A stretch of 64,000 bases of DNA from Candidatus Oxydemutator sp. (GCA_965203445.1 OZ241883.1:832001-896000), one strand, 5' to 3'. Positions 5,307-63,730 are shown, counted from the first letter of the stretch. Notes: generated from the sequence alone by a model not told the origin. Numbers and translations are program-made.

Positions 5307-5316
5307 CCTTCCCATC

Positions 5317-6790: not shown

Positions 6791-9700
6791 TCAGGGGGCC
6801 GGGAAGCAGAGCGCGCAGTCGGGAATGGAGAGGGCGCCGTTCTGTATGATACGGAATTGATCCGCCGAGAGAACGTCGCCGTCAAAGTCCACGTCGGCAT
6901 CAATGACGTAGGAACCCGCGGCATCGGGAACGGCGTAATGGACGCCGCCGATAGCCGTCAGGTTGTGGACGCGAATAAACGCCTCGTCGGCAGCGTTGAT
7001 CCTGCCGTCTCGGTTGACGTCGCCGGCATACATCACGAACTCACCATTCGGCAAGGCCCGCTGACGATCCAGGTACGCCTGCTCGGTCCTGAAGTCCGCG
7101 CAATAGGCCGCCGCGTCGTCGGCACAACGCGCCAGCGCGGCCGCGGACATCACCGACAGATGGTTGCGGTGGTGTATCAGCACGTATAAATCCGGCGCCC
7201 GGTCGTCTATCACCACGCCAAAACGCACGTCCCCGCCGCGTATGACCCGATCCACGCCGACGACGTCGCCGTTGCTCAAAAGCAACGCCGCCTGCTTGCC
7301 CAGCGAGGTCGAAGTGGTGGCCGCAGAAGCACCGGCACCGCCGGCCGTCGCCCGCAGCTCGACCAACACCCAATCCACTATCGGCGCGGACACCGTCGAC
7401 GGCACGCTCGCCGCAGCCGCGCTCCACGGCGACGACCGATACGGCTGGCTCGCCGGCAGGTAGCTCCTATACGTGGTCTTCATCGGACGCCCGATGCCGT
7501 ACGCACCCTGCAAATATGCGCCGACGCGTATCGTCGCCCCCACCACGTCTTCGTCACGCACGATCAACGTTACCGAGTCCGCGCTTACAATCGAATAGTA
7601 GCCGCTTACCTCGTGGCTCAACGTGACCACCTCGTCGTCCACCGTTGCGTCGCCCGCCACGGACACCGTGACCGATTGCGACGTACGCCAGTTCGACGTC
7701 GTGAAGGTCAGCGTAGAGGCCGACACGCTCACGTCCTCGTTGTCGCTCCTTACGGTAATCGTCACGTCGCCTTGCGGCGCCTCGGTCAGCACCATCCTGT
7801 AGGTCGCCGTGGCGCCCTCCGACAATTCCAGCCTGGTCGGGTTCACGAACACGTGGGCATAGCGCACCGCAACAACCACCGTGTCGGTGTCCGAATACTC
7901 CCCGCGCGCGTCCTGCACGCGCAACGAGAACACCAGGTCCGCATCGACGTTCCCCGGCAGTTGCAGCGGCGTCGTGAAGGTCGGCGCCACCGCGGACGCG
8001 TCGCTCAACGTGACTCCCGGGCCGCTGGTCTGGCTCCAGCTATACGTCAGATCCTCGTCCTCGGGGTCGGAACTGCGGCTGCCGTCCAGGAACACCAACA
8101 CACCTTTGTCCACCACCTGATCGTCCCCGGCATCCGCCGTCGGCGCGTCGTTCGCACCCGGACGCACCGTGACCACCACCGTGTTCGTCGTCTGACCGCT
8201 CAACTGCCGTTCCACGGGCGACGACAGTCCGCGCGTGTCCGACACCACCAGCACGAACGTCAGGGTCTCGCTACTCGCCAACTGCACTGGTGCCGTGAAC
8301 GTCGCGCTGCGCATCCCGGCGCCGTGCAGTGTCACCATACTGCCGCTGACCTGACGCCAGCCGTACGTCAGAACCTCTCTCTCCGGATCGCTGCTGCCGA
8401 CGCCGTCCAACGTTACCACGTCGCCCTCGTCCACTACCTGATCGGCGCCCGCGTCCGCCGTCGGCGCGTCGTTTTCGCCCGGACGCACCGTGATCACCAC
8501 CAGGTTCCTCGTCATGCCGTCAAACTGCGCTTCCACGGGCGACGACAGACCGCGCACGTCCGACACCACCAGCACGAACGCAAGGGTCTCGCTACTCGCC
8601 AACTGTAGCGGCGCCGTGAACGTCGCGCTGCGCATCCCGGCACCGCGCAACGTCACCTGGCTGCCGCTGATCTGACGCCAGCCATACGTCAGATCCTCTC
8701 TCTCCGGATCGCTGCTGCCGACACCGTCCAGCGTTACCACGTCGCCCTCGTCCACCACCTGATCGGCGCCCGCGTCCGCCGTCGGCGCGTCGTTCTCGCC
8801 CGGACGCACCGTGACCACCACCGTGTTCGTCGTCCTGTCGGCAAACCGCGCTTCCCGTGGCGATGACAAACCGCGCGTGTCCGACACCACCAGCACGAAC
8901 GAAAGGGTCTCACTGCTCGCCAACTGTAGCGGCGCCGTGAACGTCGCACTGCGCATCCCGGCACCGCGCAACGTCACCTGGCTGCCGCTGACCTGACGCC
9001 AACCATACGTCAGATCCTCTCTCTCCGGATCGCTGCTGCCTACGCCGTCCAGCGTTACCACGTCGCCCTCGTCCACCACCTGATCGGCGCCCGCGTCCGC
9101 CGTCGGCGCGTCGTTCTCGCCCGGCAACACCTCGACCGACACCTCGGCAGACGAACTCGCATTGCGCCGATCCGTCGCCGTCAGCCGGAATACCAGCGTC
9201 GCCGTCTCCGCCAACTGCACCGGCGCCGTGAACGTCGCCACCGACGACGTCGGCTCGCCCAGCCCCACGTCAATACCGCCAATCTGTTCCCATCTATACG
9301 ACAGACGGCCACCATCGGTGTCCGTCGCACTGCCGCGCAACGTGACCTCGGCACCTTCGGCAACCACTTGATCGGAACCGGCATCCACCATCGGCGGCGT
9401 GTTGACGCCCAACTCCACATAGACCACCAAGTCATCGGTCGTCGCGGCACCGCGCTCGTCCGTAACACGCAACGCAAACGCTATCTCCGTCGCCGCACTC
9501 AAACCCGTCGGCACCACAAAGCTCACAGTCCTCGACGACGCATCGCTCAACGTAACGCCCAGCACCTCCGCACCGCTGGTCTGACTCCACCGATACCTCA
9601 ACTCCTCGCCCTCAGGATCATAGGCGCTGCCGCGCAATACCACCACGTCGCCCTCGCCCGCAAGCAGATCATCGCCCGCGTCCACCACCGGCGCGTCGTT

Positions 9701-39700: not shown

Positions 39701-42700
39701 CCAGCCATACCGCAACTCCTCTCTCTCCGGATCCCTGCTGCCATCCCCGTCCAGCGTTACCATCTCGCCCTCGTCCACCACCTGATCATCGCCCGCGTCC
39801 GCCAACGGCGCGTCGTTCTCGCCCGCGCGCACCGTGATCACCACCGTGTTCGTCGTCTGACCGCTCAACTGCCGCTCCCTCGGCGACGACAGTCCCCGCG
39901 TGTCCGTCGCCACCAGCACGAACGTCAGGGTCTCGTCGCTCACCAACTGCTCCGGCGCCACAAACGTCGTGCTGCGCGCCCCGGCGTCGTGCAACGACAC
40001 CTGACTGCCGCTGATCTGACGCCAGCCATACACCAGCATCTCGTTCTCCGGATCGCTGCCATCGCCGGCCAGCGTTACCACCTCGCCCTCGTCCACCATC
40101 TGGTCGGCGCCCGCGTCCGCCGTCGGCGCGTCGTTCTCGCCCGGGCGCACCGTGATCACTACCGTGTTCGTCGTCTGACCGCTCAACTGCCGTTCCGCAG
40201 GCGACGACAGACCGCGCGTGTCCGTCGCCACCAGCACGAACGTCAGGGTCTCGCTGCTCGCCAACTGCACTGGCGCCACAAACGTCGTGCTGCGCGCTGC
40301 GGCGTCGTGCAACGACACCTGACTGCCGCTGATCTGACGCCAGCCATACACCAGCATCTCGTTCTCCGGATCCCTGCCTACGCCGTCCAGCGTCACCACG
40401 TCGCCCTCGTCCACCACCTGGTCGGCGCCCGCGTCCGCCACCGGTGCGTCGTTCTCGCCCGGCAACACCTCGACCGATACCTCGGCAGACGAACTCGCAT
40501 CGCGCCTGTCCGTCACCGTCAGACGGAACACCAGCGTCGCCGTCTCCGCCAACTGCTCCGGCGCCGTGAACGTCGCCACCGACGACGTCGGATTGCCCAA
40601 AACCACGTCGCCACCGCTGATCTGTTCCCATCTGTACGACAATACGCCGCCCTCGGCGTCCGTCGCACTGCCGCGCAGCGTGACCTCCGCCCCTTCGTCC
40701 ACCACTTGATCGGAACCGGCATCCACCACCGGCGGCGTGTTCGTCCCCAACTCCACCCGAACCACCACCTGCGCGGTCGTCGCCAGACCGCGCTCGTCCG
40801 TCGCTCTCAACGCAAATCCCAGCACCGCCGCCTCCGCCAGACCCGACGGCGACGTGAACGTCGCCACCGACGACGTCGCACCCGACAACACCACCGTCGG
40901 CTGACCGCTGGTCTGGCTCCATTGATACCTCAACATCTCGTTCTCCGGATCAAACGCCACCCCGCGCAGCACCACTTCCTCGCCTTCGCCCACTATCTGG
41001 TTCCGCCCCGCGCTCACCACCGGCGCGTCGTTCGGCCCCGGCAACACCTCGACCGACACCTCGGCCGACGAACTCGCATTGCGCCCGTCCGCCACCGTCA
41101 ACCGGAACACCAGCGTCGCCGTCTCCGCCAACTGCATCGGCGCCGTGAACGTCGCGGTTACCGACTGCGCGTTCGTCAGCGTGACCCCTCTGCCACTGAC
41201 CTGACGCCAGTCATACCTCAACTCCTCTCTCTCCAGATCGCTGCTGCCGGTGCCGTCCAGCGTTACCACCTCGCCCTCGTCCACCACCTGATCGGCGCCC
41301 GCGTCCGCCACCGGCGCGTCGTTCTCGCCCGCGCGCACCGTGATCACCACCGTGTCCGTGCCCACCGCGTCGCGCGCGTCCGTTACCGTCAACTCGAACA
41401 CCAGCGTCGCCGTCGCCGCCAACTGCACCGGCGCCGTGAACATCGCGGTGGTCGCGGTGGTCGTGGCGCCTACCGTCGCTCCCGTCAGCGCAACTCGACC
41501 GCCGCCGATCTGACGCCAGCCATACCGCAACTCCTCTCTCTCCAGGTCGCTGCTGCCATCGCCGTCCAGCGTTACCATCTCGCCCTCGTCCACCACCTGA
41601 TCATCGCCCGCGTCCGCCAACGGCGCGTCGTTCTCGCCCGCGCGCACCGTGATCACCACCGTGTTCGTCGTCTGACCGCTCAGCTGCCGTTCCACGGGCG
41701 ACGACAGACCACGCGTGTCCGTCACCACCAGCACGAACGTCAGGGTCTCGTTGCTCACCAACTGCTCCGGCGCCACAAACGTCGTGCTGCGCGCCCCGGC
41801 GTCGTGCAACGACACCTGACTTCCGCTGATCTGACGCCAGCCATACACCAGATCCTCTTCCTCCGGATCCCTGCCAACCCCGTCCAGCGTTACCACGTCG
41901 CCCTCGTCCACCATCTGGTCGGCGCCCGCGTCCGCCGTCGGCGCGTCGTTCTCGCCCGGTCGCACCGTGATCACTACCGTGTTCGTCGTCTGACCGCTCA
42001 ACTGCCGTTCCGCAGGCGACGACAGACCGCGCGTGTCCGTCGCCACCAGCACGAACGTCAGGGTCTCGCTGCTCGCCAACTGCACTGGCGCCACAAACGT
42101 CGTGCTGCGCGCTGCGGCGTCGTGCAACGACACCTGACTTCCGCTGATCTGACGCCAGCCATACACCAGCATCTCGTTCTCCGGATCCCTACCTACGCCG
42201 GCCAGCGTCACCACGTCGCCCTCGTCCACTACCTGGTCGGCGCCCGCGTCCGCTACCGGCGCGTCGTTCTCGCCCGGCAACACCTCGACCGATACCTCGG
42301 CAGACGAACTCGCATCGCGCCTGTCCGTCACCGTCAGACGGAACACCAGCGTCGCCGTCTCCGCCAACTGCTCCGGCGCCGTGAACGTCGCCACCGACGA
42401 CGTCGGATTGCCCAAAACCACGTCGCCACCGCCGATCTGTTCCCATCTGTACGACAATACGCCGCCCTCGGCGTCCGTCGCACTGCCGCGCAACGTGACC
42501 TCCGCCCCTTCGTCCACCACTTGATCGGAACCGGCATCCACCACCGGCGGCGTGTTCGTCCCCAACTCCACCCGAACCGCCACCCGCGCGGTCGTCGCCA
42601 GACCGCGCTCGTCCGTCGCTCTCAACGCAAACATCAGCACCGCCGCCTCCGCCAGACCCGACGGCGACGTGAACGTCGCCACCGACGACGTCGCACCCGA

Positions 42701-45700
42701 CAACACCACCGTCGGCTGACCGCTGGTCTGACTCCACTGATACCTCAACATCTCGTTCTCCGGATCGAACGCCACCCCGCGCAGCACTACTTCCTCGCCT
42801 TCGCCCACTATCTGGTTCCGCCCCGCGCTCACCACCGGCGCGTCGTTCGGCCCCGGCAACACCTCGACCGACACCTCGGCCGATGAACTCGCATTGCGCC
42901 CGTCCGTCACCGTCAACCGGAACACCAGCGTCGCCGTCTCCGCCAACTGCATCGGCGCCGTGAACGTCGCGGTTACCGACTGCGCGTTCGTCAGCGTGAC
43001 TCCCCTGCCACTGACCTGACGCCAGTCATACCCCAACTCTTCTCTTTCCAGATCGCTGCTGCCGGTGCCGTCCAGCGTCACCATCTCGCCCTCGTCCACC
43101 ACCTGATCAAGTCCGGCGTCCGCCGTCGGCGCGTCGTTCTCGCCCGGCACCACCTCGACCACCACCGTGTCCGTGCCCGTCGCGTCGCGCGCGTCCGTTA
43201 CCGTCAACTCGAACACCAGCGTCGCCGTCTCCGCCAACTGCATCGGCGCCGTGAACGTCGCGGTGGTCGTGGCGCCTATCGTCGCTCCCGTCAGCGTCAC
43301 TCGACCGCCGCCGATCTGACGCCAACCATACCGCAACTCCTCTCTCTCCAGGTCGCTGCTGCCATCGCCGTCCAGCGTTACCATCTCGCCCTCGCCCACC
43401 ACCTGATCATCGCCCGCGTCCGCTATCGGCGCGTCGTTCTCGCCCGCGCGCACCGTGATCACCACCGTGTTCGTCGTCTGACCGCTCAACTGCCGCTCCG
43501 CAGGCGACGACAGTCCCCGCGTGTCCGTCGCCACCAGCACGAACGTCAGGGTCTCGTCGCTCACCAACTGCTCCGGCGCCACAAACGTCGTGCTGCGCGC
43601 TCCGGCGTCGTGCAACGACACCTGACTGCCGCTGATCTGACGCCAGCCATACACCAGATCCTCTTCCTCCGGATCCCTGCCAACGCCGTCCAGCGTTACC
43701 ACGTCGCCCTCGTCCACCATCCGGTCGGCGCCCGCGTCCGCTACTGGCGCGTCGTTCGGCCCCGGTCGCACCTCGACCGACACCGTGGCCGTGCCTATCG
43801 CGTCGCGCGCGTCCGTTACCGTCAACTCGAACACCAGCGTCGCCGTCTCCGCCAACTGCTCCAGCGCCGTGAACGTCGCGGTGGTCCTGGAACCTATCGT
43901 CGCTCCCGTCAGTGTCACTCGACCGCCGCCGATCTGACGCCAGCCATACCTCAACTCCTCTCTCTCCGGATCGTTGCTGCCATCGCCGTCCAGCGTCACC
44001 ATCTCGCCCTCGTCCACTACCTGGTCGGCGCCCGCGTCCGCTACCGGCGCGTCGTTCGGCCCCGGCAACACCTCGACCGATACCTCGGCAGACGAACTCG
44101 CATCGCGCCTGTCCGTCACCGTCAGACGGAACACCAGCGTCGCCGTCTCCGCCAACTGCACCGGCGCCGTGAACGTCGCCACCGACGACGTCGGATTGCC
44201 CAAAACCACGTCGCCACCGCCGATCTGTTCCCATCTGTACGACAATACGCCGCCCTCGGCGTCCGTCGCACTGCCGCGCAACGTGACCTCCGCCCCTTCG
44301 TCCACCACTTGATCGGAACCGGCATCCACCATCGGCGGCGTGTTCGTCCCCAACTCCACCCGAACCGCCACCCGCGCGGTCGTCGCCAGACCGCGCTCGT
44401 CCGTCGCTCTCAACGCAAATCCCAGCACCGCCGCCTCCGCCAGACCCGACGGCGACGTGAACGTCGCCACCGACGACGTCGCACCCGACAACACCACCGT
44501 CGGCTGACCGCTGGTCTGGCTCCATTGATACCTCAACGTCTCGTTCTCCGGATCGAACGCCACCCCGCGCAGCACCACTTCCTCGCCTTCGCCCACTATC
44601 TGGTTCCGCCCCGCGCTCACCACCGGCGCGTCGTTCGGCCCCGGCAACACCTCGACCAACACCTCGGCCGATGAACTCGCATTGCGCCCGTCCGTCACCG
44701 TCAACCGGAACACCAGCGTCGCCGTCTCCGCCAACTGCATCGGCGCCGTGAACGTCGCGGTTACCGACTGCGCGTTCGTCAGCGTGACTCCCCTGCCGCT
44801 GACCTGACGCCAGTCATATCCCAACTCCTCTCTCTCCGGATCGCTGCTGCCGGTGCCGTCCAGCGTTACCACCTCGCCCTCGCCCACCACCTGATCGGCG
44901 CCCGCGTCCGCCGTCGGCGCGTCGTTCTCGCCCGGTCGCACCGTGATCACCACCGTGTCCGTGCCCACCGCGTCGCGCGCGTCCGTTACCGTCAACTCGA
45001 ACACCAGCGTCGCCGTCTCCGCCAACTGCTCCGGCGCCGTGAACGTCGCGGTGGTCGTGGCGCCTACCGTCGCTCCCGTCAGCGCAACTCGACCGCCGCC
45101 GATCTGACGCCAGCCATACCGCAACTCCTCTCTCTCCGGATCGTCGCTGCCGTCGCCGTCCAGCGTTACCATCTCGCCCTCGCCCACCACCTGATCATCG
45201 CCCGCGTCCGCCACCGGCGCGTCGTTCTCGCCCGCGCGCACCGTGATCACCACCGTGTTCGTCGTCTGACCGCTCAACTGCCGTTCCCTCGGCGACGACA
45301 GTCCCCGCGTGTCCGTCGCCACCAGCACGAACGTCAGGGTCTCGTCGCTCACCAACTGCTCCGGCGCCACAAACGTCGTGCTGCGCGCCCCGGCGTCGTG
45401 CAACGACACCTGACTTCCGCTGATCTGACGCCAGCCATACACCAGCATCTCGTCCTCCGGATCGTTGCCGGTGCCGGCCAGCGTTACCACGTCGCCCTCG
45501 TCCACCATCTGGTCGGCGCCCGCGTCCGCTACTGGCGCGTCGTTCGGCCCCGGTCGCACCGCGACCGACACCGTGGCCGTGCCCATCGCGTCGCGCGCGT
45601 CCGTTACCGTCAACTCGAACACCAGCGTCGCCGTCGTCGCCAACTGTTCCGGCGCCGTGAACGTCGCGGTTACCGACTGCGCGTTCGTCAGCGCGACCCT

Positions 45701-48700: not shown

Positions 48701-51700
48701 CGCCCTCAATGCAAATCCCAGCACCGCCGCCTCCGACAAACCCGACGGCGCCACGAAGCTTGCGTTGATAGACGTTGCGCCCGTCAACGTAACCAACGGC
48801 TGCCCGCTGGTCTGGCTCCATTGAAGACTCAACCTCTCCCCCTCCAGATCAAACGCGCTGCCGCGCAGGGTTACCGTCTGGCCTTCGCTGACGAACCGGT
48901 CGTCGCCCGCGTCCACCACCGGCGCGTCGTTCGGGCCGGCCTGCACCGTGATCACCACCGACACGGGGGCCGCACGACCGCCCCGATCGTCTTCCACATA
49001 CAACGCGAATTCCAAATCCTCGTCATTGACCAACTGCGGCGGCGCCGTGAACGTCGTACGCCTGCTTTCGCCAAATCCCTCCAGATTCACAAAGTAAGAC
49101 CTGAGCGGATTGCTGCCGGCTCCGGTTTGAAACCAGCGATACCTCAGCGCATCGCCTTCCAGATCGCGCGCGCTGCCGATCAGAACCACCACGGCGCCCT
49201 CGGACACGACCTGAGCAGGCACGGCGTCCACCTCCGGCGCGTCGTTCGGACCGGCGCGCACCGTGATCACCACCGTGTTCGTCGTGTCATCACCCGACTG
49301 CGCTTCCCTAGGCGACGACAACCCCCGCGTATCCGTCACCACCAGCACGAACGAAAGGGTCTCATTACTTCTCAACTGCACTGGTGCCGCGAACGTCGTC
49401 GTTACCGACAGCGCGTTCGTCAGCGTGACGCTCCTGCCGCCGATCTGACGCCAGCCATACACCAGCACCTCGTCCTCCGGATCGCTGCTGCCGGTGCCGT
49501 CCAGCGTTACCACGTCGCCCTCGTCCACCACCTGATCGGCGCCCGCGTCCGCTACCGGCGCGTCGTTCGCACCGGCACGCACCTCGACCGACACCGTATC
49601 CGTGCCCGCCGCGTCGCGCACGTCCGTCACCGTCAGCCGGAACACCAGCGTCGCCGTCTCCACCAACTGCAACGGTGCCGTGAACGTCGCCGCCGCCGTC
49701 ATCGGAGTGCCCAACCCCGCGTCGCGCCCGCCGATCTGTTCCCACCTGTACGCCAACGCGCCGCCCTCGGTGTCGCTCGCACTGCCGCGCAACGCGACCT
49801 CGGCCCCTTCGTCGACCACTTGATTGGGGCCCGCCTCCACCACCGGCGGCGTGTTCGCGCCCAACTCCACCGTGACCGCAACCGTGGCGGTCGCCGCCAG
49901 ATCGCGCTCGTCCACAACCCTTAACGCAAACCCCAGCACCGTCGCCTCCGCCAGACCCGTCGGCGCCGTGAACGTCGCCACCGACGACGTCGCACCGGAC
50001 AACGCCACCGTCGGTTGCCCGCTGATCTGGCTCCATTGGTACGTCAGCATCTCCCTCTCCGGATCGTTGCTGGCGCTGCCGTCCAACGTCACCATCGCGC
50101 GCTCGGTTACCGTCTGGTCGGACCCGGCGTCCGCCGTCGGCGCGTCGTTCGGACCCGGCCTTACCCGAACCAGCACCCGGTCCGACGAACTCGCGTTGCG
50201 CACGTCGGTTACCGTCAGCGTGAATTCCAACGTCGCCGTCGTCGCCAGCTGTGGCGGCGCCGTGAAGGTCGCGGTCGCCGTCGTCGCACCGCCCAACGCC
50301 ACCCGCGCCACGTCGAGACCGCCGGTTTGTCGCCAGCTGTACATCAGGCGTCCACCTTCCGAATCGTCGGCGACGCCGCGCAGCGTCACCGTCTCTCCTT
50401 CGGTCGTCACTTGATCCAGTCCGGCGTCCACCGTCGGCGGCGTGTTGGCGCCCAATTCCACCGTGACGATCACCGTGTCGGTCGTCGCCATATTGCGCTC
50501 ATCCGTCGCTCTCAATGCAAACCCCAACGTCGTTGCCGCCGCCAGACCCCTCGGCGCCGTGAAGGTCGCGGTCGCCGACGTCGCATCGCGCAACGTCACC
50601 AACGGCTGGCCGCTGGTCTGGCTCCACTGGTACCTGAGATTCTCTCCTTCGGGATCGTTGGCGGCGCCGCGCAGCGTCACCAACTCGCCCTCGCCTACGG
50701 TCAGGTCCATACCCGCGTTCACCTCCGGCGCGTCGTTCGGGCCGGCGCGCACCGTGATCACCACCGTGTTCGTCGAAGCCTCGTCGCGTTGGGGGCTTGC
50801 CACGGACGGCAAGCCGCGCGTATCGCTCACTATCAGGAAAAACTCCAACTCCTGATCCTGCACCAGCTGCGTCGGCGCCGCAAACGTCGTGACCGCCGCG
50901 CTATCGTCCGCCAGCACCACGTCCCTGCCGGCGATCCGCGTCCAGTGATACGTCAACGACTCGTTTTCCGGATCGCTGCTTCCGGTGCCGTCCAACGTCA
51001 CCACTTCGCCCTCGGCCACCGTCTGGTCGGGGCCCGCGTTGGCCGTCGGCGCATCGTTCTGGCCGGGTGTCACCGTGATCATCAGCGCGTCGGAGGGGCT
51101 CAGCAGGCCCCCCGAATCACGCACATTCAGCCAGAACACGAGAAGGACGGTCTCCGCCAGTTGGGTCGGCGCACGAAAAGTCGGACGCGCCGTCGCTGCA
51201 CCCGTCAGGGTAACGTTCGGTCCTCGGACTTGTCGCCACTGATAGGATACCGGCTGCCGCGTATCGCTATCTCTGCTGGCGCTGCCGTCGAGCGTCACTA
51301 CGGCGCCCTCGGTCACGGTCTGGTCCAGTCCGGCATCTGCTATCGGGCTCTGGTTCGGGCGTTGCAGCCCGACGTCGAAATTGGCGTAGCGCAAAGCCGG
51401 ATATTGCAAATCACTGCCGAAATCCCAGGGGGTGTCCACGGCGCCGTCGTTGTCCACGTCCACGTTCCAGGTGGTGTAGATACCGGTGTAGGTAGTGGGC
51501 GACTGCAACTCGCGGGTCGTTCCCGGCGTGCCACCGGCGCTGCTTTGTTGGCGGCTTCGATCTGTATCCCAGTAACTGTTGGCCACGCGGGCGGTACTCA
51601 AACCCTCACCCACCAAGCCGCCGCTCTGGCCAGTACTCAACGTGTAACTAGCGGTCACTACTCCATGGTTAAGGCCCACCAGGCCGCCACTGAGGCCGTA

Positions 51701-54700
51701 ATATGAGCCAACGCCGGAGGCAACTCTCCCTATGTTGATCGCTGCGTAACTGGCGACTATCGTTCCGGCGTTATAACCCACCAGGCCGCCAATTTGGGAT
51801 CTGCCAAAAATGGAAGCTCGAATCGAACCGATTTGAGGTAACTGTTGGGTTGTCAGTTCCCTCATCGCATAACAGGCTGCTATCGTTCCGAAGTTCCGGC
51901 CCGCCAGCGCACCGATGCTATTTCTTCCAGCTACTCTGACGTCAGGCAGCCCCACCCCCACTATCATGCCGCCGCTGCCTACTTGGCCGAACAAGCCAGC
52001 GTCGTCGCCCGCATTCCCCAAGGTATAGTCTGGCCTGCCCTGGTCGTTGCTGTCGGCCAAAAGGTTGATCGCAAGGCTCCTGATAGCGTAACCATTGCCC
52101 TGGAACGTCGCGTTGAACGAATCGTTGCGGTTGCCGATGGGGTTCCAGCCAGAACGCGGACTCACGTCGGAAGACAGTTCATAGCCGAGGCAACGGCCAT
52201 CGCGACACCCCATATCCGCTCGTCCGTCGGGGAAAGCCTCGTGATAACTCACGACAGCGGAACCGACCGGAACGCCGTCGCCGTCCAGATCCCAGCGAAT
52301 AGCGTTCAGCTGACTCTCGTTTCCGACTTCGATGAGATGATCGCCGTCCAGGTCGTAGCTCCTGTTGCGCTCCGATACCGCGATAGTGATCGTCAGAACG
52401 GCCGTATTGCCGTCCTCGTCGGTGACGCTGATGCGATAAGTGTCGGGACCGGATTTTGTCGTCGGCGTGCCTATGATGGTGCCGATTTGCGCCGTGGTGG
52501 GCTGGTCGTGGCGCAGTCCCTGCGACAGCGAGGGCAGATTCGAGTACGTCACCCGGCCGAAACCACCCGACGCCTGCGGCAGATTAAAGGAGACCGGTTC
52601 ACCCACCGTGAAAAGCCTCTGGATAGACGCGGGCGTGAAAAACGGCGGCTGGGGTCGCCGGATTACAAAGGGAACGAGCAGCGTCGCGCTGTCCGTCTCC
52701 GATCTGTCGGCGTCCTCATCGTGTGCGATAAACTCCAATACGTAGGTGCCCGGATTGTTTCCTATCTGAAAAGTTACACTCCGTAACCGAGGACTGGCAG
52801 GATCAGGTATTTGCAGTTGCAAGGTTTGCAGGAAAGAAGCCGTTTCTTCGGAAACCCCGTAGCTAAGGTTGCCGTCACCGCCCGACGCCCGCGGCAGCTC
52901 AATATAAAGGCCGAACACGAGATCGGGCCTCTGGCCTACTAAGATGGTCCGCGTAGTCTGTCTCGCATCGGCGGCAAACGTCGGATGCACGTTGCCGAGC
53001 ACGTTCGTGCGCGGCCCCCTGGTGACGGTATGCGCGCCAAGATCGAGATTGGCGTCGGCGCCGCCCGTCGCGGAGCGAATGGCGGCTGCGGCGGGCGTCG
53101 TCAGCGCCCGCGCCGATATATCAATGCCGTCATCGTCCCGATCCGGCGTGCGCACGCGGTATTCAAACCGCAGCGAACCATCCGCCTCCAGCCCGGCAAA
53201 GCTCGCGCGCGCGTCGGTGGTGCCGATGGTCAGCGCCAGTTGCGGCGTGCCCGTCACCGCCACCGGCCTGTCGAAGCCGACGTACGCGGTGATGACGTCG
53301 CGCCAGCGAAAAGCACCGCCGGCGCGCGTGGTGCCGTCAAGCCTGACGCTGTTCACCACCGGGGGCAAGGCGATACGGCCATCCACTCTGTGGCGCGTGC
53401 TGTTGACCACGGCGTGGACGCCGAGATCGAGATTCACCGGATTGCCGCTCTCCGACACGACGCTCTCCCCGGCACCCAACTTGATCGCGTCCGCGGCAAT
53501 GGAGAGACCGCCGACGTCGCTCCAGGTGGTCTGTACGACGGCGCGGAAAATCAACAGGGTATTGGTGTCGGTAGTGACCTGAGGGAAGCGCACGCTGGCG
53601 GGGTTCTCCAACCCGACTTCCAGCTCGGGCGAACCGTTGACGGAGATCGGATTGTCAAAGCGCACCTGCGCCTCTATCGTGTCGCCGGCGGTGTAGGTGT
53701 CGGTGCGCCCCTGGCGCCCGCCGAGGGACACGTCAACCACGACCGGCACGACTGTCACCGCCAATTCGAAAGTCAGCGTGTCGGTGTCCCCGTCTTCGTC
53801 GCTTACGGTCAGCACGTAGGTCGTCGTGGAATGCCCCGCGATCGGCGTGCCGCCGATGGCGGTCGGCGCGGTGTGGGTCACTCCCGCCGGCAGCGGCGGG
53901 GATATGCGATAGCTCAGCGCACCGTCGCCGCCCGACGCCTGCGGCAAAAACGTCGGAGGGTTGAACACGTTCAGCGAGAGAGTGAGCGATGGCGCCTCGG
54001 CACCGCCGAACGACGGAAACAAGTCCCGCACCACCGTGACCGCATAGGTCGTCACATACGCCGGGTCCTGCGCCGTCACCTCTGCGGTAATGACGGTTTC
54101 GCCGGCGCCGAGATCAACCTGATGGCCGAGCATCGTCGAATCCGCGTCCGCCGGCTCGATGCGCACGGTGGCGGCGGCGTTCGCTTTCGTTGCCGTCACC
54201 GTCAGGCGCATCAAGCCGCTGGCAACGTTGGCACGGTACCTGGTGACGCCGGAATCAAACGCCGGGGTCAGCGTGCCGTCCGAGACGACCAGCGCCCCCA
54301 GGGTCGCGTCGTCGGACAGTACCGGCGGCGGGGCCGGAGAAAGTGCGTGCGCGCGCAACGTCGGATATTGGCTCGACGTGCCGAAATTCCACGGATCGTC
54401 GGCAACGTCGTCTCCATCCAGGTCCACGTTCCAGTTGGCGTAGATGCCGGTGTAGGTAGTGGGGCCCTGCAACCCGGCGGGGCTTTGGCCCGTTCCCGCG
54501 CAGAAGCTGCCTACCGTGTTTGCGTTGCTCCAGTAGCTGTCGGTTACCGTTCCACCCCACCTCAAAGCCGGATGCGCAACCGTCAAACCACAACTGAAAG
54601 AAGCAAATCCCCCTTCGGGATTACCCGTCGCATAGCTCGCGATTATCGTTCCTCTGTCATTCACGTTGGTGCCGACCAGGCCGCCGACCGATCGGCGGGC

Positions 54701-57700
54701 TTCTACCGATGCCGTCGCATAGCTCGCGATTATCGTCCCCTCATTGCGGCCCACCAGGCCACCCACTTCCGTAAAGGCGTTTGCTATATGGCTATAAACC
54801 GCTTGGGTCTCCACTGTGCCTCTGTTTCCGCTTCTGAACCACGTGCCGCCCGTTGCATAACAAGCTGCAATTGTCCCGTCGTTTCGGCCCGCCAGACCAC
54901 CGACGTAGTTTCTCCCCACTACCAGAACGTTACGCAAACCGAGTCCGACAATCGTGCCGCTGCTGCCGACGTAACCAAACAGACCGACGTAATCGTTATC
55001 GAATCGGTAAATAGACAGCCTGTTATTTGCCGTGCCACCACCCAGGTTGGTACCGCTGATTTCATAGCTGTTGCCGTCGAAGGTGGCGTTGAACGGAGTG
55101 TTGGCATCGCCGATCGGGTCCCACTGAGAACTACCAACGTTCAAGTTGGATCCCAGCTCATACCCGCGACAACCGCTGGAAGGACACCCCATGCCCTGCC
55201 GCCTCGTGGGAAAAGCCGAATCGTAGGAAGCGGCGTTCGTCGGCATGCCGTCGCCGTCCAGATCATGGCGAATGGCGTTCATCTGCGCCACGTTGCGCAC
55301 CTCTATCAGACCATCGTTATCGAGGTCGTAATCGGTACCGCTGGGGCCGGTGCCGGGATCAACGGGCGGCGCCTCGCGCGGCTGCTCGGCGGGGCGGAAA
55401 TTGCGATACTGCAACACCGGATAAAAGCCGTTCGCAATGCTCCACGGGGAGTCGGCGGCGTTGTCGCCGTCCACGTCCGCGCTCTGCCAGGAAGAATACA
55501 GAGAGAGCGCGGAAGACAGCAGATCGGCAGTCGAGGCGGCCAGACCGCCGCCGCCACTGACCGACCAGCCGCTGGTTTGCCGATCCCATCCGCTGTCTAT
55601 CACGCGGGAGCCTCTGAAACTATGACCTACCAGGCCACCGAAGCTACCCGTACCCCCGGGTATGACGGCCCCTCTCGCGTAACTGTAGCGGATCGTGCCG
55701 GCGCTGCGCCCCACCAAGCCGCCGACCCGTCCGACGCCGGTGACCGAAGCGGCCGCGTAACTCGCCACCACGGTGCCGCCGCCGGCCAGCTCACCGACCA
55801 GACCGCCGGCGTCGCGCCCCGAGACCGCGCCGGTCACGTAGCAGGCGCCGATCCGGCCCGCGCTTCGGCCCGCAATACCGCCGACCCGGTGGCCGCGCGA
55901 CGTCACGTCGGCGTTCGCCAGACCGACTCCCAGCACCTCGCCGCCGCCACCGATGCTGCCGAACAGACCGGCGTAGTTATCGGCGCTGTTGATGTACAGG
56001 TTGGATATGACGCGGCCATTGCCGTGGAAAGTGGCGGTGAAGTCGTTATTGAGGCCGCCGATGGGTCGCCAACTGACGCGCCCGGTCGTCGGGAACGACA
56101 AATCCCGGGCCAGTTCGTAGCCGCTGCAACGGCCGCCGCAATCCACCTGCGGATCCAATAACGGGAAACCGGCGCCGTAGGCGGCGGCGTCAGCCCCGGC
56201 GTCGACCCGCCCATTGCCGTTCAAATCCCAGCGGATTGCGTCCAGTTGCCGAACGTCGTTGATCTCGATGAGGCCGTTGCCGTTGGCATCGTAGTCGAGC
56301 ATTCTGACGTCCAAATAAAAAGTCGCCGTCGCGGTGCGGTTCGCGCGGTCCGTCGCCGTGTAGGTATAGGGGCCGTAGATTCCGGCCGCGACGGCGTTGC
56401 CCGGCGCGTCGGCCCGCCCGGAAAGGACACGCGTCGCCGGGTCGAGCGAGAAGTTGCCCGGCAACGACGGCGACACCGTGTAACGCAGCGGCGCGAATCC
56501 GCCCGCGGCCGGCGGCAGCGTCATCTGGAAAGCCACCCGCCGTCGCAGGAAAATATAGCCGGGGGTCGTCGAATGGGCGTTGGAAATCGTCGCCTGCGGG
56601 AACGCCAGCGGCGCCGATGCCCGCGCGAACTGCGCCGAAATCTGCGCGCCCGCGCGCTCGTGCTTCGACGCCGGAAACTGGCTCGCGGTGCCGAAATCCC
56701 ACGGATCGTCGGCGACGCCGTCTCCATCCACGTCCACGTTCCAGGCGGCGTAAATCGCAACGCCGGCGTTGCCGGCGGTGTCGTCGTAACTGGTGGGCGT
56801 CTGCAAGTTGCCGATGGTCCTGGAGGTGCCGCCGTTGCTGTGGGAAAAACCGCTCAATACGGCGTTGTAGTAACTGGCGGCGACCGTGCACCCGCCGGAG
56901 CAGTCTGCATTACGGCCTATCAAGGCGCCGTGCTGCTGAACGTCGCCGGCCGGCCGAGTCGAGCGCACGCGGCCAATCGCGTAGCTGGCGATTACGGCCG
57001 CCGGTGCTCCCTGCGCGCCGACCAGGCCGCCAACCACGCTGCCCGTTACCGAGACCGAGGCATAAGAGGCTACGACGTCTCCTTGCTGCCAGCCCACCAG
57101 ACCACCCGTGCCCCATGCGCCAACCACCTGACCATCCGCAACGTAGCTGGCGGTGATCGTCGAACCCGTATGCATACTGCCCGCCAGGGCGCCGGCGTTA
57201 CTGCCGCCCGACCTTATATTCACGTCGAGCAGGCCGAGCGCCCTGATCACGCCGCCGCTTCTCAACACGCCGAACAAACCGCGATCACTACGCGCGGCGT
57301 CGCCGCTGTCAATGAACAAATGGGAGATGGTGTGCCCGTTGCCGTCGAAGACCGCGGCGAAATTGATGGGTTGCCAACCCGCGCCTCCGTTCCAATAGGC
57401 GCCGTTGGAATCGGCCGCCGTTATCTCGCCGTCGCCATCGGTGTCGAAGTCCAGGTCGGCCAGCAATTCGTAGCCCTCGCAGACGGGCCAGCAGTCGGTG
57501 CTCGGAAAAGCGAGGACGTAGGCGGAGGTGTTGGCCTCGGGCACGCCGTCGCCGTTCTCGTCCCAGCGCATCGCGTGCAACTGCTCGAGCGTTCGCACTT
57601 CTATCAATCGCGAGTGCGAACCTTCGAGTATTGTCACCGTAAGCCGGTCCGGGTTTATCGTCACCCTCTCGGGAGCAGGCGCCCCCGCAACAAAACCCAA

Positions 57701-59233: not shown

Positions 59234-59642
59234 GCGACGCTCATTCCTGACTACGCAAGTGAACAGTTTCCGCACAAAAAATTATTCTTATTTTATGTAT
59301 CAAAACCCGCACGTGGTCACGGCACCAAGCGGCTTTCTACCACGGTGGTCTTAGCGGACGAGGTTTGCGGATTTTGGGACAGAACATTATACCCCAGCAG
59401 GCCGGTTTCGGAAAACCGCCAATAGTCTCGTAAAATCATACGATTAGGTTCCCTTATATCCCCTCGGCCACCCTCGCCGGCCATTCCCCTCGCCTGCGCG
59501 CCGATTGTATAAGGCCAGAAACACGCCGGACGGATCGTGGTGGCCGCATACAGATTGTTGATAAAACGGCGACTATTCTTTATAGTAATTGCCCGGTTCG
59601 GCCGAAGAGTCTTTTCACTCACTTTATACGGAAATTCGCGCC

Positions 59643-59717
59643 ATGGAATTGTACCGCTCCGTCGTTATCGTCCTCGGCGTCGTCATCATGACGGCCGCTT
59701 TTCTGCTGGCCCGGTAA
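59643..59717 (+). CDS. Putative 24-aa single-pass membrane peptide
   Basis: ATG 59643 to TAA 59717 encodes MELYRSVVIVLGVVIMTAAFLLAR, one hydrophobic helix flanked by Arg, with mostly G/C-ending codons. It is too short for the ORF track, and the RBS is weak. Confidence 0.45.
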   Translation: MELYRSVVIVLGVVIMTAAFLLAR

Positions 59718-59774
59718 TCCGTCATCCGGGCCGTCATCCAAAAAATCCATTCCGAAGGCTTATTCCGAAGGGAC

Positions 59775-60464
59775 GTGATCCCAGGCCGGCGGCGGCCGCG
59801 CCACCAGGCGCGGGTGGCGCGGCGGGCGCGCCTTGTATTCGCGGCGGCGTGCGCCACGTGCGCGTTAGGCGCGGCGCAAAACGCCGGCGCGCTGTCCATC
59901 GTCGAACAAAAAAAGGTCGAGAACGACATCGCCGAGATGCTGTTCGTCGCCGAGGCGCAAAGCGTCGGGCGGCTGGGCGCGGCGGCGGACGCCGACGCCG
60001 CGATAGACTGGGCGTTGTCGCACAGCGCGGCCTACCCGAACGTGCGCATGGCCGCGTCGAACGTGCACGCGGTGCAACGCTACGACAGCCGCAGCGGGCG
60101 GCGCACGTGGCTCGCGCGGCGCGAGCTGCGCCTGGAGAGCAAAAACACCGAACGCCTGGCGCTGCTCGCCGGCGCGTTGCTCGCGCGCCTCAAGATCAGC
60201 CGCGCGCGCTTCAAGCTGTCCGAGCGCCTGCGCCGCATGACCGAGGTGCAGTTGATGAGCAGCGCGATGAAGCGCTTCGAGCGCGAGAAGCCGGCGACGG
60301 TCGAGCGCCCGAACTCCATCGAGGTCACCGTGGACAATCTGGGGCGCGCCGAAATGCCGCGGCTGGAGAGCCTGCTTGGCGGCGCCAAGCCGGGCGACGA
60401 ACAAATCCGGCCGGGATACAGCGTCATACGAATCACGTTGCGCACGCGCGATGCCCCGCGCTGA
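59775..60464 (+). CDS. SIMPL/DUF541-like periplasmic protein
   Basis: Basic then hydrophobic leader ending AGA. The pattern VEND.......EAQ, W.A.R.LRLESK....L..L.G.L, F.LS...R...E..L...A...F, and I.PG.S.I.IT resembles gammaproteobacterial DUF541 proteins. Confidence 0.6.
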   Translation: MIPGRRRPRHQARVARRARLVFAAACATCALGAAQNAGALSIVEQKKVENDIAEMLFVAEAQSVGRLGAAADADAAIDWALSHSAAYPNVRMAASNVHAVQRYDSRSGRRTWLARRELRLESKNTERLALLAGALLARLKISRARFKLSERLRRMTEVQLMSSAMKRFEREKPATVERPNSIEVTVDNLGRAEMPRLESLLGGAKPGDEQIRPGYSVIRITLRTRDAPR

Positions 60465-61359
60465 CGACGGCCACACGCTCCTCGGCAAGGCAAAACTGTA
60501 CGCGGAGCTGGCGCGCCTGCACCGCCCGATAGGCATTTATCTGCTGTTGTGGCCGACGCTGTGGGCGTTGTGGTTTGCGGCGGGCGGCGTCCCCGACGCC
60601 AAAATCCTGCTGATATTCATAGCCGGCGTCGTGCTGATGCGCTCGGCGGGTTGCGTCATCAACGACTACGCCGACCGCGAATTGGACGCGCTGGTCGAGC
60701 GCACGAGAGGGCGCCCGCTTGCGGACGGGCGCGTGCGTCCCGGCGAGGCGCTGGCGTTGTTCGGGGCCCTGGCGGCGCTCGCGTTCGCGCTGGTGCTGCT
60801 GACCAACCGCGAGACCGTGCTGATGTCGTTCGTGGCACTGGCGCTGGCGGCTTCCTACCCGTTCATGAAGCGCATCCATCCGCTGCCGCAGGCGCATCTG
60901 GGGCTGGCGTTCGGGTGGGCGATACCGATGGCCTGGGTGGCGCAGACGCAAAGTTTTCCGCCGCTCTCGATCTGGACGCTCTACGCCGCCAACACGACGT
61001 GGGTCGTCGCATACGACACGATGTACGCGATGGCCGACCGCGACGACGACGTGGCCGCCGGCATCCACTCGAGCGCGATCCTGTTCGGCGCGTGGGACAG
61101 GCGCTGGATAGGCGCGTTGCAGGCCGTAACACTCGCGCTGCTGTTCGCGGCCGGGCGTCTCGAGGGGTTCGGGCTTTTGTTCAACGCCGGGCTGGCCGCC
61201 GCCGCGGGCCTGGCCCTCTACCAACAGCGTCTGCTGGGCCAATGCAAACGCGAGCGGCGCGCCGCCGCCTGCCTCGCCGCGTTCGCCAACAACGGATACT
61301 TCGGCTTGGTCGTGTTCGCGGGGTTGTTGGCGGAGACGGCGGCGCGCCCCCCTATCTGA
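60451..61359 (+). CDS. ubiA: 4-hydroxybenzoate octaprenyltransferase
   Basis: RLHRPIGIYLLLWPTLWALW, MRSAGCVINDYADRELD..VERT..RPLA, YPFMKR and VAYDTMYAMADRDDD. The start at ATG 60451 overlaps the upstream stop. Confidence 0.96.
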   Translation: MPRADDGHTLLGKAKLYAELARLHRPIGIYLLLWPTLWALWFAAGGVPDAKILLIFIAGVVLMRSAGCVINDYADRELDALVERTRGRPLADGRVRPGEALALFGALAALAFALVLLTNRETVLMSFVALALAASYPFMKRIHPLPQAHLGLAFGWAIPMAWVAQTQSFPPLSIWTLYAANTTWVVAYDTMYAMADRDDDVAAGIHSSAILFGAWDRRWIGALQAVTLALLFAAGRLEGFGLLFNAGLAAAAGLALYQQRLLGQCKRERRAAACLAAFANNGYFGLVVFAGLLAETAARPPI

Positions 61360-61380
61360 TACCGGTCTGATGCCAGTCTG

Positions 61381-63423
61381 ATGCCGGAAGACGTCCCGTC
61401 CACTCGACCCGCGTCCCCGAGACTTTCGGCCACGTTCGCCGCGACGATGCTGGCCGTCGCCCTGCCCACGTTCATGGTCATGGTCACGGCCACGACGCAG
61501 GCGGCGGCGCAGGCGGCGGAGACGTCGGGAACCACGATACGGGCGCGCGTGTTTTTGCAGGGCGCGTACGACGGGGCCGGGCGCCCGATGAAGACCACGT
61601 ACCTGAAATACCTGCCGGCTGAACAGCCGTACGGCGGCGTGCCGTGGCGCGCGCCGGCAACCACCGTGCCGCGCGTTGCGACGAACGCGGACGGTTTCGG
61701 TCTGGCGGCGGTCACCGCGACGATAGTGGACTGGGTGCTGGTCGAGTTGCGCACCACGGCGCGCGGCGCCAGTGCCGACGCGGGTGCGGGCGCGGCACCG
61801 CTGGCCAGCCGCGCCGCCTTGCTGCTCAGCAACGGCGACGTCGTCGGCGTCGACACGAGCGCCTCGGCGCCCGCGGCGGTGGCGCGAACCGACGGCGTGC
61901 ATTTCGCCGCGGCGATAGACGACGCGCAAGACCTGTACGTGCTGATTCATCACCGCAACCACATGTCCATCATGTCGCCCGCTCCGGTGGCCGCCTGCGC
62001 CGACGACGGCGGCTATTGTATTGACTTCACGCGCGCGCAGTCTTACCGCAACGGGCAGTATGCGCTCCGCGGCGGGCGCGGTGAGCGCGGTGAGCGCGGC
62101 GGCCCATTCGCAATGTACGCGGGCGACACCAACCGCGACGGCGTGATTGACGACGCCGACCGGCGATCCATCCGCGCGCACAACCTGACGACCATCGGCG
62201 CCGACCACTACGACGAACCCGACGCCGCCGGGCGCTACGTCATAGACTCCGACCTCGACTTCGACGGCGACGTCCTTTCGGCGGACGGATTCTTCATCGT
62301 CGGTCGAGACGCCGTAAGAGGCGGGCTGTCGAGGCCTTCCAGCGACGTCGCAGGCTTGGCCGCCGAAGTCGAAATCTGCCGCAATCCGGCGGCCGCCTTC
62401 GCCACGACGCGCTCGGCGACGAACGAACACGGCGATTACTGGGTGGCCTACCGGTGCCGGGAAGTTTGCGACGACTGGCGCCAATGCCTGCAACGCAGCG
62501 GCTCCCGACAGGATCTGGCCTTTGTGGTGGATAACATGGGCGGGCGCCTCAGATTCTCGGTGGATCGCGGCGGCGACGAAGTGCTGTATTTGCAACGCGG
62601 CGTCGGCGGCATCTCATTCATGCCGTTTCTGCCCGACCAGATCGAGCGCGCATCGAGCGCGGGCGTCGTGATGGTGGCCTGGGAGTCGGGTTTCCACAGT
62701 TGGGGGTGGTTCACGCGCACGGCGCAGGCGGCGACGCGGGTGCCGCGCGTGACCAGGCGCATCGCCGCCATCATCGCCTGGGTGCACGAAAACCTGGCGG
62801 GCGACGCGCGGCTCGGCACGGTCGGTTGCAGCATGGGCGCGCAGGCGACCTTCGGCGCGGTCTATTGGCACGGGATAGACGAAGCGGTGGACTACCAGCT
62901 GTTCATCGGCGGCCCGGCGCTCTGGGACATCAACGCCGGATGCGGGCGGCGCACCTACGCCTCGGGCCATTGCGACCGCGACCCCGGCATCGCCTGCACC
63001 AGCGACGCGGATTGCCGCGCCCTCGGCGCGAACAGCCGCTGCGACAGGCTCGGCCCGATATACCGCCGCAACGTCTGGCTGTACGAACAAGTCGTCAACC
63101 ACGTCCACGCCACCACCGCCTGCGACGTCTCGCAAGCGCAAAGCCGCGCGCCGCTTGCGTCTTTTGACGAAAGCGGTTTCGCGTTCACCGACGGCGACTG
63201 GGATTTCGACCATCCGGTGGACTTTGCGATAGACCTGCAACACCGGCGCGGCGCCGACGGCGACGAGGATTGGGCGCTCAGCGACATGATGCGATCATTC
63301 AACGGCGTTACGTCGCAAGCCGGCCACGCCAAACGCTGGCTCACCAAAAGCAATGCCCGGCATTGCAACGCGGCCCACGACGGCCGCGCGCTCGACCTCA
63401 TCCGGGCATGGATGGGGCCGTAA
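61381..63423 (+). CDS. Secreted protein: N-terminal dockerin-like domain paralogous to the giant protein's C-terminus, plus a putative alpha/beta-hydrolase domain
   Basis: Hydrophobic leader ending AAAQAA. Residues ~50-305 match the giant protein's C-terminal domain. The C-terminal half has LGTVGCSMGA (G-x-S-x-G nucleophile elbow), a Cys-rich insert and late His residues (RHCNAAH). Confidence 0.75.
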   Translation: MPEDVPSTRPASPRLSATFAATMLAVALPTFMVMVTATTQAAAQAAETSGTTIRARVFLQGAYDGAGRPMKTTYLKYLPAEQPYGGVPWRAPATTVPRVATNADGFGLAAVTATIVDWVLVELRTTARGASADAGAGAAPLASRAALLLSNGDVVGVDTSASAPAAVARTDGVHFAAAIDDAQDLYVLIHHRNHMSIMSPAPVAACADDGGYCIDFTRAQSYRNGQYALRGGRGERGERGGPFAMYAGDTNRDGVIDDADRRSIRAHNLTTIGADHYDEPDAAGRYVIDSDLDFDGDVLSADGFFIVGRDAVRGGLSRPSSDVAGLAAEVEICRNPAAAFATTRSATNEHGDYWVAYRCREVCDDWRQCLQRSGSRQDLAFVVDNMGGRLRFSVDRGGDEVLYLQRGVGGISFMPFLPDQIERASSAGVVMVAWESGFHSWGWFTRTAQAATRVPRVTRRIAAIIAWVHENLAGDARLGTVGCSMGAQATFGAVYWHGIDEAVDYQLFIGGPALWDINAGCGRRTYASGHCDRDPGIACTSDADCRALGANSRCDRLGPIYRRNVWLYEQVVNHVHATTACDVSQAQSRAPLASFDESGFAFTDGDWDFDHPVDFAIDLQHRRGADGDEDWALSDMMRSFNGVTSQAGHAKRWLTKSNARHCNAAHDGRALDLIRAWMGP

Positions 63424-63589: not shown

Positions 63590-63730
63590 AGTACAATAAT
63601 GGGAACTATATACGATTGTATGCAATCGTATCCATTTGACGTTTCACAGACCGTGCCCTGTCGGATAAAAGTTCCTTCAGGGTCTTACCGCCATCTCCAC
63701 GTCCGGCAGCCCCGTTCCCGGAGGCCTTCA
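63590..63730 (-). ncRNA. Probable TnpB omega-RNA scaffold / element right end
   Basis: Overlaps the tnpB 3' tail. Contains complementary GACGT...ACGTC segments and a perfect 9-bp hairpin ATACGATTG-N4-CAATCGTAT (63610-63631). Boundaries are inferred from known TnpB architecture. Confidence 0.45.

Follow-up and report, generated by a model that had tools for sequence, protein, structure and literature searches.

Two neighbouring genes in a 64,000-nucleotide stretch of the genome of Candidatus Oxydemutator sp. (GCA_965203445.1 OZ241883.1:832001-896000, hereafter the window, with positions counted from its first letter) encode a giant protein of 17,494 amino acids and a secreted protein of 680, and both carry the same domain of about 250 residues. 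What is this domain, and what would it attach such different proteins to? By its predicted fold, it is an X-module followed by a dockerin (XDoc). We propose that cargo proteins carrying XDoc, or carrying a short tag read by a shared XDoc adaptor, dock on a membrane-anchored cohesin. We put the probability of this reading at about 77%, the binding itself being what we infer.

The domain shared by the two proteins

The giant open reading frame (ORF) occupies positions 6791-59275 on the minus strand, as delimited by ORF scan, translation and Pfam searches. A probable Sec-type signal peptide, recognised by eye, runs from Met15 to an A-Y-A motif, with cleavage before Gln45 (59144-59233). It precedes an adhesin-type head with He_PIG immunoglobulin (Ig), Calx-beta, GLUG beta-helix and cadherin-like domains (51356-59143; Pfam on residues 1-5000) and a stalk of K319L-like PKD repeats (7856-51355), in which a motif count that misses some repeats finds 112 repeat starts spaced by about 95-100 residues; the Pfam scan covered the stalk on both sides of 29291-44275. 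The first XDoc copy forms the extreme C-terminus (6794-7540). On the plus strand, the 680-aa protein (61381-63423) begins with a signal-peptide-like stretch, seen by eye (61381-61509), which is followed by the second XDoc copy (61528-62331); its start codon is uncertain, and the near-identical protein P0001 begins 18 residues after the assigned start. A preliminary description of the window had reported this arrangement, with one copy closing a stalked protein of some 17.5 thousand residues and the other following a signal peptide, and it holds: the last ~249 residues of the giant are colinear with residues 47-319 of the 680-aa protein, 151 of 275 positions are identical (55%, E 4e-77) and all the sequence blocks then quoted are present. 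Each copy contains two F-hand loops, 43 residues apart (6986-7021 and 6860-6895 in copy 1; 62125-62160 and 62251-62286 in copy 2).

The whole ~250-residue unit had been called dockerin-like; this stands for its last ~65 residues only, the first ~170 corresponding to an Ig-like X-module. The AlphaFold2 model of copy 1, built from 78 sequences (predicted local distance difference test score, pLDDT, 90.3; predicted template modelling score 0.90), shows a beta-sandwich that starts with a strand at residues 2-7, then two loop-helix motifs. The ten best Foldseek matches, at E 1e-4 to 3e-3, are all structures with a clostridial type II X-dockerin; the next has E 0.26. In a structure comparison against 48,161 chains, only two reached a Z of at least 5 and both are X-dockerins (3kcp_A, Z 9.6; 5g5d_B, Z 9.4, with 154 of 156 residues aligned at a root mean square deviation, rmsd, of 4.1); the next family stands at Z 4.2. 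The X-dockerin matches align 153-154 residues across positions 1-243 of the model, X-module and dockerin together, and 55 residues of 2ozn_B superpose on the dockerin part with an rmsd of 1.8. Model, Foldseek and structure comparison therefore agree on the dockerin helix/F-hand fold, and because these searches match type II X-dockerins, the unit is, on its predicted structure, an X-module plus dockerin. In copy 1 the X-module, an Ig/transthyretin-like beta-sandwich with invariant DW and HRNH motifs, would span 7031-7540 and the dockerin 6833-7030, with helices at residues 183-191 and 225-234.

Among sequence searches, Pfam Dockerin_1 (PF00404) recognises copy 1 at 26.4 bits (cut-off 22.9), over its final ~60 residues, and not copy 2, and its gathering score is reached by two of the seven carriers scanned through the dockerin; phmmer on the PDB matches the dockerin loops only (best E 0.004). 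No NCBIfam model covers the domain, and neither window copy matches the C-terminal domain of the secretion system of type IX (T9SS; PF18962, TIGR04183).

Further cargo proteins, which had been anticipated, are abundant: the closed 2.38-Mb genome contains 25 full XDoc copies and two fragments, on carriers that sum to 146,011 aa, or 18.4% of the genome. By a crude rule, signal-peptide-like starts are found in 21 of the 25 carriers versus 224 of 824 other long ORFs. All copies but one are C-terminal (24/25, on ORFs of 1,272-17,496 codons), window copy 2 being the only N-terminal one. The domain had been presented as a position-independent tag; N-terminal and internal copies do exist, but they are exceptional (1/25 here, N-terminal; 7/113 and 20/187 non-terminal elsewhere). 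F-hand loop 1 is present in 25/25 copies and loop 2 in 20/25, which defines a class I of 20 copies with two intact F-hands, including both window copies, and a class II of five with a degenerate second loop. Thirteen further carriers, scanned whole or in part, contain M12B and S8 proteases, PPC, leucine-rich repeat (LRR), GLUG, cadherin-like, PKD and Calx-beta domains; no glycoside hydrolase family was found in these or in the window giant. Nothing supports docking of XDoc to PKD repeats. With XDoc, a small-genome bacterium could display giants amounting to 18% of its genome without an anchor of its own on each.

The 250 kb immediately ahead of the window (C1:569222-816606) hold ten XDoc-capped giant genes, all on the minus strand, several of which start beside long G or C runs. 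The ORF at C1:793573-806802 starts in mid-domain, with a possible frameshift upstream, and the XDoc fragments are found at C1:1339579-1340763 and C1:1563043-1563327, one of which has lost the central part of the domain.

A profile built from 17 copies gave 11,041 matches at E <= 0.001 among 1.84 billion cluster representatives (50% identity), so that a very large unannotated domain family can now be named as X-dockerins. The best 77 loci from GTDB genomes belong to Bacteroidota, Chlorobiota/Ignavibacteria and Calditrichota, with one Deltaproteobacteria and one unplaced; in these loci, dominated by the Fibrobacteres-Chlorobi-Bacteroidetes (FCB) group, XDoc is at the C-terminus of 105 of 118 ORFs. 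In the ESM Atlas, XDoc matches Bacteroidota hypothetical clusters, 15-19% of whose members carry Dockerin_1. Among 400 genomes sampled from the host's class, the XDoc carriers are those of the host's family plus two genomes from a single other genus.

A proposed cohesin partner and its anchor

Gene neighbourhoods in the host's family point to a cohesin partner. We compared 18 family genomes with 22 genomes of other families of the same order; the 18 are kin, and their tallies are not independent trials, which tempers what follows. XDoc is found in 16/18 family genomes versus 0/22; in most cases it makes up an exported, stand-alone protein 265-340 residues long. The gene after XDoc begins with a conserved domain, which is found in 18/18 versus 0/22. 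At 35 of 36 family XDoc loci, this domain lies at most 3 kb downstream on the same strand (within 1 kb at 31), and it is present at 15 of the 16 loci whose neighbour stood outside model building. The fold model of this scaffold domain from genome G009 (47 sequences, pLDDT 76) retrieves cohesins in all top 20 rows (Z 10.7-7.8, next 6.8), the best with Z 10.7 and an rmsd of 3.0 over 144 aligned residues. On this model, the family's downstream gene has an N-terminal domain of cohesin fold, a jelly-roll beta-sandwich. The Pfam cohesin family PF00963 finds no match at E 0.1 in 14 scaffold sequences and matches two of 20 FCB neighbours, both below the cut-off; about a dozen FCB XDoc neighbours carry a domain related to that of the scaffolds (profile probability 87%, E 4e-6).

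Cohesin-like domains may also stand in tandem, two in proteins of G015 and G017 and four in one protein of G014. The latter, of 2,741 aa (L045:4868-13090), ends in an anchor-type tail and resembles a multi-socket scaffold in a genome where the tag described below was not found. In G008, a cohesin-led scaffold ORF of 19,552 codons (C1 from 928220) has a GlyGly-like tail at its end.

In the present genome, two adjacent genes show the same order as in relatives. The first (C1:1594987-1622130; 9,047 aa), which ends in a class II XDoc, is a candidate cohesin protein or adaptor tier; the second, directly after it (C1:1622100-1627385; 1,761 aa, with a GlyGly-like tail), is a candidate anchor scaffold. 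Their N-terminal domains resemble each other, their strands can be aligned by eye, and a pooled family and FCB profile made without this genome's rows gave them ranks 1 (E 6e-5) and 2 (E 0.46) among 2,338 ORF N-termini. We consider them candidate cohesins, one per protein, identified by gene order and profile rank alone. The postulated cohesin partner thus appears as a predicted fold in the family and as two profile candidates here, both outside the window, in which the preliminary description had seen none. Relatives of these candidate cohesins amount to one protein, with 0/300 class genomes and none in Joint Genome Institute (JGI) metagenomes, and the ESM Atlas returned low-recognition matches only. 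Just past the scaffold gene, at C1:1630809-1635513, at least six near-identical ORFs of coiled-coil type stand in tandem.

Many family scaffolds end in a Gly-rich motif, a hydrophobic helix and a basic cluster, by eye a GlyGly-CTERM-like tail, and a choice-of-anchor U domain precedes the tail in 7/9 of them (three over the cut-off). In Vibrio cholerae, according to PMC6219818, VesB is placed on the cell surface by GlyGly-CTERM, rhombosortase and type II secretion. Rhombosortase scores over the cut-off in 17/18 family genomes versus 0/22 of other families; its gene lies less than 0.8 kb behind the scaffold in seven genomes, and gspD lies 6-15 kb before the adaptor in seven. The present genome encodes both (rhombosortase TIGR03902, 130.9 bits, cut-off 84; GspD TIGR02517, 470 bits, cut-off 351), and three of its other giants carry GlyGly-like tails of their own. 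The anchor differs by lineage: most of these FCB cohesin-like partners bear a T9SS C-terminal domain, the FCB carriers themselves ending in XDoc, and in the other genus of the host's class (G322, G140) the XDoc operon ends with an IPTL-CTERM protein. The same plug-and-socket logic would thus be served by three anchors. The G322/G140 operon (L266, L267, L268) encodes a stand-alone XDoc with strand 1, a giant XDoc protein and two proteins sharing an N-terminal domain plus XDoc; its IPTL-CTERM protein has that same N-terminal domain, perhaps another cohesin type.

We propose the following sequence of events. A Sec signal peptide, detected by eye and by the crude rule, would take the cargo out of the cytoplasm, XDoc would adopt its predicted fold with, presumably, calcium in the F-hand loops, and the dockerin helices would then bind the cohesin at the scaffold's N-terminus, as fold and gene order suggest. 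By analogy with VesB and from the gene linkage, the scaffold would cross the outer membrane via the secretion system of type II (T2SS) and be held in the membrane by its GlyGly-CTERM-like tail once processed by rhombosortase. Here C1:1622100-1627385 would be the anchor, and the XDoc-ending C1:1594987-1622130 could be an adaptor tier; at a guess, class II XDocs would pair with the anchor and class I XDocs, as in the window, with the adaptor.

The same parts may be viewed as an export device, XDoc being mainly a signal or piggy-back handle: through periplasmic binding to the cohesin protein or to a T2SS component, cargo with no outer-membrane signal of its own would be carried out and might then be released. 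The nearly constant C-terminal position (24/25, 106/113, 167/187 and 8/8 copies) is that of a secretion signal, the T9SS signal of FCB loci is borne by the cohesin-like neighbours of carriers that end in XDoc, and the adaptor and scaffold genes stand behind T2SS genes in seven genomes. However, the N-terminal and internal copies counted above suit a docking module more than a terminal signal, a membrane-anchor-type tail on the scaffold would be superfluous for export alone, and one protein with four cohesin-like domains is poorly explained by a handle. We therefore judge it rather improbable that export is the main role, but such a role and surface display are compatible.

Strand-less adaptors and a C-terminal tag

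By sequence, the stand-alone XDocs of the family lack one piece of the domain: the 30 that were aligned begin just past strand 1, after the signal peptide, and none matches the strand-1 motif, strict or loose. Strand 1 is present in 25/25 copies of this genome and, by the strict or loose pattern, in 105/113 FCB copies, the other eight being variants by eye. It lies at 61534-61569 in copy 2 and at 7499-7534 in copy 1, where it reads TIRVGAYLQGAY (predicted strand at residues 2-7, pLDDT 95). This very stretch occurs in relatives as a free C-terminal tag, their giant proteins terminating in strand 1 itself.

The tag consensus, LRLRLRLFLEGPLR-stop, forms a 14-residue C-terminal tail; it derives from 99 tag ORFs, a minority of all matches that comes from fetched regions, mostly of G004, and includes one chance match. 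R at -11 (98/99) and L at -2 (95/99) are conserved although the search pattern leaves both free. A DNA pattern of the strand plus a stop codon has 216 matches in G004 and 36, 26, 17, 16, 16, 15, 12, 7 and 5 in nine other family genomes, versus 0 in the present genome, 0-2 in the 22 genomes of other families and 0-1 for a reversed control; in 400 Bacteroidota genomes and in 399 other genomes of the class, a slightly stricter pattern matched no more than twice. Counting the single tag of G008, 13/18 family genomes possess the tag, and in two genomes of the host's own genus it bears an extension of 2-14 residues (6/7 and 11/12 matches). For its 216 tag matches, G004 has one adaptor (C3:469157-470134) and one cohesin scaffold (cohesin at C3:470295-470960).

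Of 65 complete tag ORFs of at least 150 aa (62 from one genome), a signal-peptide-like start is seen in 57; the tag is carried by 11 short fragments as well. The tagged cargo includes S8 protease, LRR, cadherin and Calx-beta proteins, and the tag stands at the exact C-terminus behind differing upstream domains in five genera. Several giants of relatives have a cohesin at the start and the tag at the end, and therefore chains would be possible. At L211:18723-19187 and at L195/L219 (G004, G013), tandem short repeats each end in tag and stop, like a cassette reservoir or decayed duplicates. No free tag was found in this genome, in the 77 FCB-dominated loci or in five of their genomes, and a scan of JGI metagenomes with a codon-restricted pattern produced six matches, none a secreted protein. 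The split form may nevertheless occur outside the family because P0035 and P0036, exported XDocs of 229 aa, are strand-less and FCB-like in sequence. In a quick tree, which sampled 45 of 113 FCB rows, contained three or four mis-cut rows of this genome and does not give the order of the forms, 23 of the 26 rows of this genome group together as a clade (96) from which the family's adaptors (81) stand apart. Covariation among 329 fused sequences (effective number 219) is weak; the coupling partners of strand 1 are the hairpin that precedes the dockerin (ranks 5, 18 and 44) and, with less strength, a strand near position 92, which would fit a central strand without proving it.

From their complementary sequences and distribution, we suggest that in most relatives the cargo's 14-residue tag completes the beta-sandwich of the strand-less XDoc in trans. 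It would then probably be a new kind of sorting signal, a C-terminal beta-strand without a membrane helix that a soluble X-dockerin adaptor, in place of a protease, recognises through strand complementation. Up to ~200 secreted proteins of one cell could in this way be brought onto one rhombosortase-anchored cohesin; branched fibres could arise by head-to-tail chaining of proteins that have a cohesin N-terminally and the tag C-terminally, and the window would represent the fused form. That pairing already takes place in the periplasm and gives the cargo a ride through the T2SS is a further idea, less likely than not. The split form also hints at how short C-terminal tags without a known reader might work. 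We think it unlikely that other orphan tags are donor strands for unrecognised adaptors.

The conserved residues of the X-module invite another interpretation. H124, R125, N126, H127, D56 and W57 are at least 90% conserved over 78 sequences, and XDoc has a weak fold likeness to isopeptide/ester-bond domains (Z 3.0-3.5), so that HRNH and DW might form a catalytic or covalent-linkage site, for instance for autoprocessing or for a spontaneous cross-link locking the strand. However, the clear structural matches include no enzyme fold, the R of HRNH varies among adaptors, and the strand has no fixed reactive residue, since R/K and E/Q interchange there. We see hardly any chance that such a site is what these motifs stand for.

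Several observations weigh against docking on a cohesin. Identity to the clostridial XDoc is 11-16%, at an rmsd of about 4 Å. The two candidates of this genome have no Pfam cohesin match, are missed by the family-only cohesin model and show no significant similarity to family cohesins in pairwise profile tests, and the anchor candidate has an E-value of only 0.46 in the pooled profile. A single anchor cohesin for 25 giant cargoes would be a thin scaffold. The tails score below every curated sorting-signal cut-off, TIGR03501 included (10 tails in one test), and in this genome the scaffold is not linked to the T2SS/rhombosortase locus, the rhombosortase and GspD genes lying 0.5 Mb away. G007, G011 and G014 (genus g5) have strand-less adaptors, yet no tag was found in them. 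The 65 complete tagged cargoes form one single-linkage similarity group and therefore share modules, so they are not shown to be unrelated; most FCB XDoc genes lack a cohesin-like neighbour (about a dozen of 118 ORFs have one). These last two points, together with the degenerate second F-hand of 5/25 copies, would suit an XDoc that, stabilised by calcium, mainly caps giant adhesins or lets them self-associate, with no cohesin partner implied and the tag a relic spread by gene duplication. But a cohesin-fold gene follows 35/36 family loci, stand-alone XDocs preceded by a signal peptide alone have nothing to cap, and a relic would scarcely keep its strict C-terminal place in five genera, after upstream domains that differ. 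We give the cap little chance and retain docking on an anchored cohesin.

Other genes of the window and known systems

The remainder of the 680-aa protein is a cysteine-rich cargo domain of ~355 residues (62356-63420) that matches no known family: searches of Pfam, NCBIfam and PDB sequences found no match, and the genome contains no paralogue. A nucleophile-elbow-like G-C-S-M-G motif seen by eye (62824-62838) makes an alpha/beta hydrolase a guess. Long antisense ORFs across the giant gene were discounted as repeat shadows. Upstream of the giant, on lower-GC DNA, consecutive plus-strand genes for an MT-A70 methyltransferase, an N6/N4 methyltransferase and an HNH nuclease (93-2452) likely form a restriction-modification cassette. 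They are followed by a minus-strand gene for a 449-aa protein matching RNA-polymerase alpha-CTD, helix-hairpin-helix and sigma-70 region 4-like domains (2474-3823), an AAA_14/DUF4143 ATPase gene (4095-5336, minus) and dprA (5218-6711, plus). UbiA is encoded immediately 5' of the 680-aa XDoc gene (60376-61359, plus), and the end of a TnpB-like gene closes the window (63606-63998, minus). The proteobacterial UbiA, the T2SS and the rhombosortase fit the gammaproteobacterial host that had been thought probable.

The closest known counterpart is the type II cohesin/X-dockerin pair of Clostridium thermocellum and Acetivibrio cellulolyticus (PDB 2b59, 5g5d, 5k39, 4u3s). As described in the accessible part of PMC5141474, a seven-strand X-module of 98 residues is joined to a dockerin with two calcium-binding F-hands, whose helices bind cohesin. 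Both systems have a C-terminal Ig-like X-module followed by a two-F-hand dockerin and, on our reading, a cohesin on a cell-anchored scaffold and a possible adaptor tier. They differ in the X-module (98 residues there, about 170 here), in the Gram-negative host, in the position of XDoc, which here is on every cargo and not on the scaffoldin, and in the anchor, here a GlyGly-like tail and not SLH; that description mentions no split form with a peptide tag. A cellulosome-like assembly had been proposed; the X-dockerin and cohesin parts are there as predicted folds, but the cargoes scanned are adhesin-type proteins and proteases, not cellulases, and therefore the system would work like cellulosome type II attachment without being a cellulosome.

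Non-cellulosomal Gram-negative cohesin-dockerin assemblies have been proposed for Ca. Stygibacter (PMC8542988) and for Chlorobium chlorochromatii Cag_2037/Cag_2038 (10.64898/2026.03.19.712371). They likewise combine dockerins that end secreted enzymes or giant Ig-repeat proteins with a neighbouring or CTD-bearing cohesin protein. As far as their available descriptions go, they are annotated single cases, set apart by the lack of an X-module family, a T2SS/rhombosortase anchor and a strand tag. The consulted portion of a review (PMC12484212) lists cohesin-dockerin types I-III only. The GlyGly-CTERM/rhombosortase/T2SS pathway (PMC6219818) shares with the scaffolds, as judged by eye, the Gly-rich motif, hydrophobic helix and basic tail, and this genome has both rhombosortase and GspD; there each cargo has its own anchor, whereas here one anchored cohesin would serve many, with tails under the TIGR03501 cut-off. 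In the open literature, as distinct from subscription papers and supplements, we found neither this XDoc family nor a coupling of it to rhombosortase nor the tag described, and no paper joining GlyGly-CTERM with dockerin; labelling of proteins for the cell surface by a strand tag is apparently undescribed so far.

Like the T9SS C-terminal domain (PF18962, TIGR04183), XDoc is shared by the C-termini of many secreted proteins, and its fused form is widespread in T9SS-bearing FCB genomes; fold and size differ, however, no T9SS model matches, and in FCB loci the T9SS signal sits on the cohesin-like partner. The split form recalls donor-strand complementation, as in chaperone-usher and type V pili, and the engineered SpyTag/SpyCatcher pair, in which an Ig-like domain lacking a strand is completed by another polypeptide. 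In contrast to these, it would use a short natural C-terminal tag, non-pilin cargo and a soluble dockerin adaptor, with no usher, chaperone or known covalent bond, and as a natural short-peptide/adaptor pair it could become an orthogonal tagging tool.

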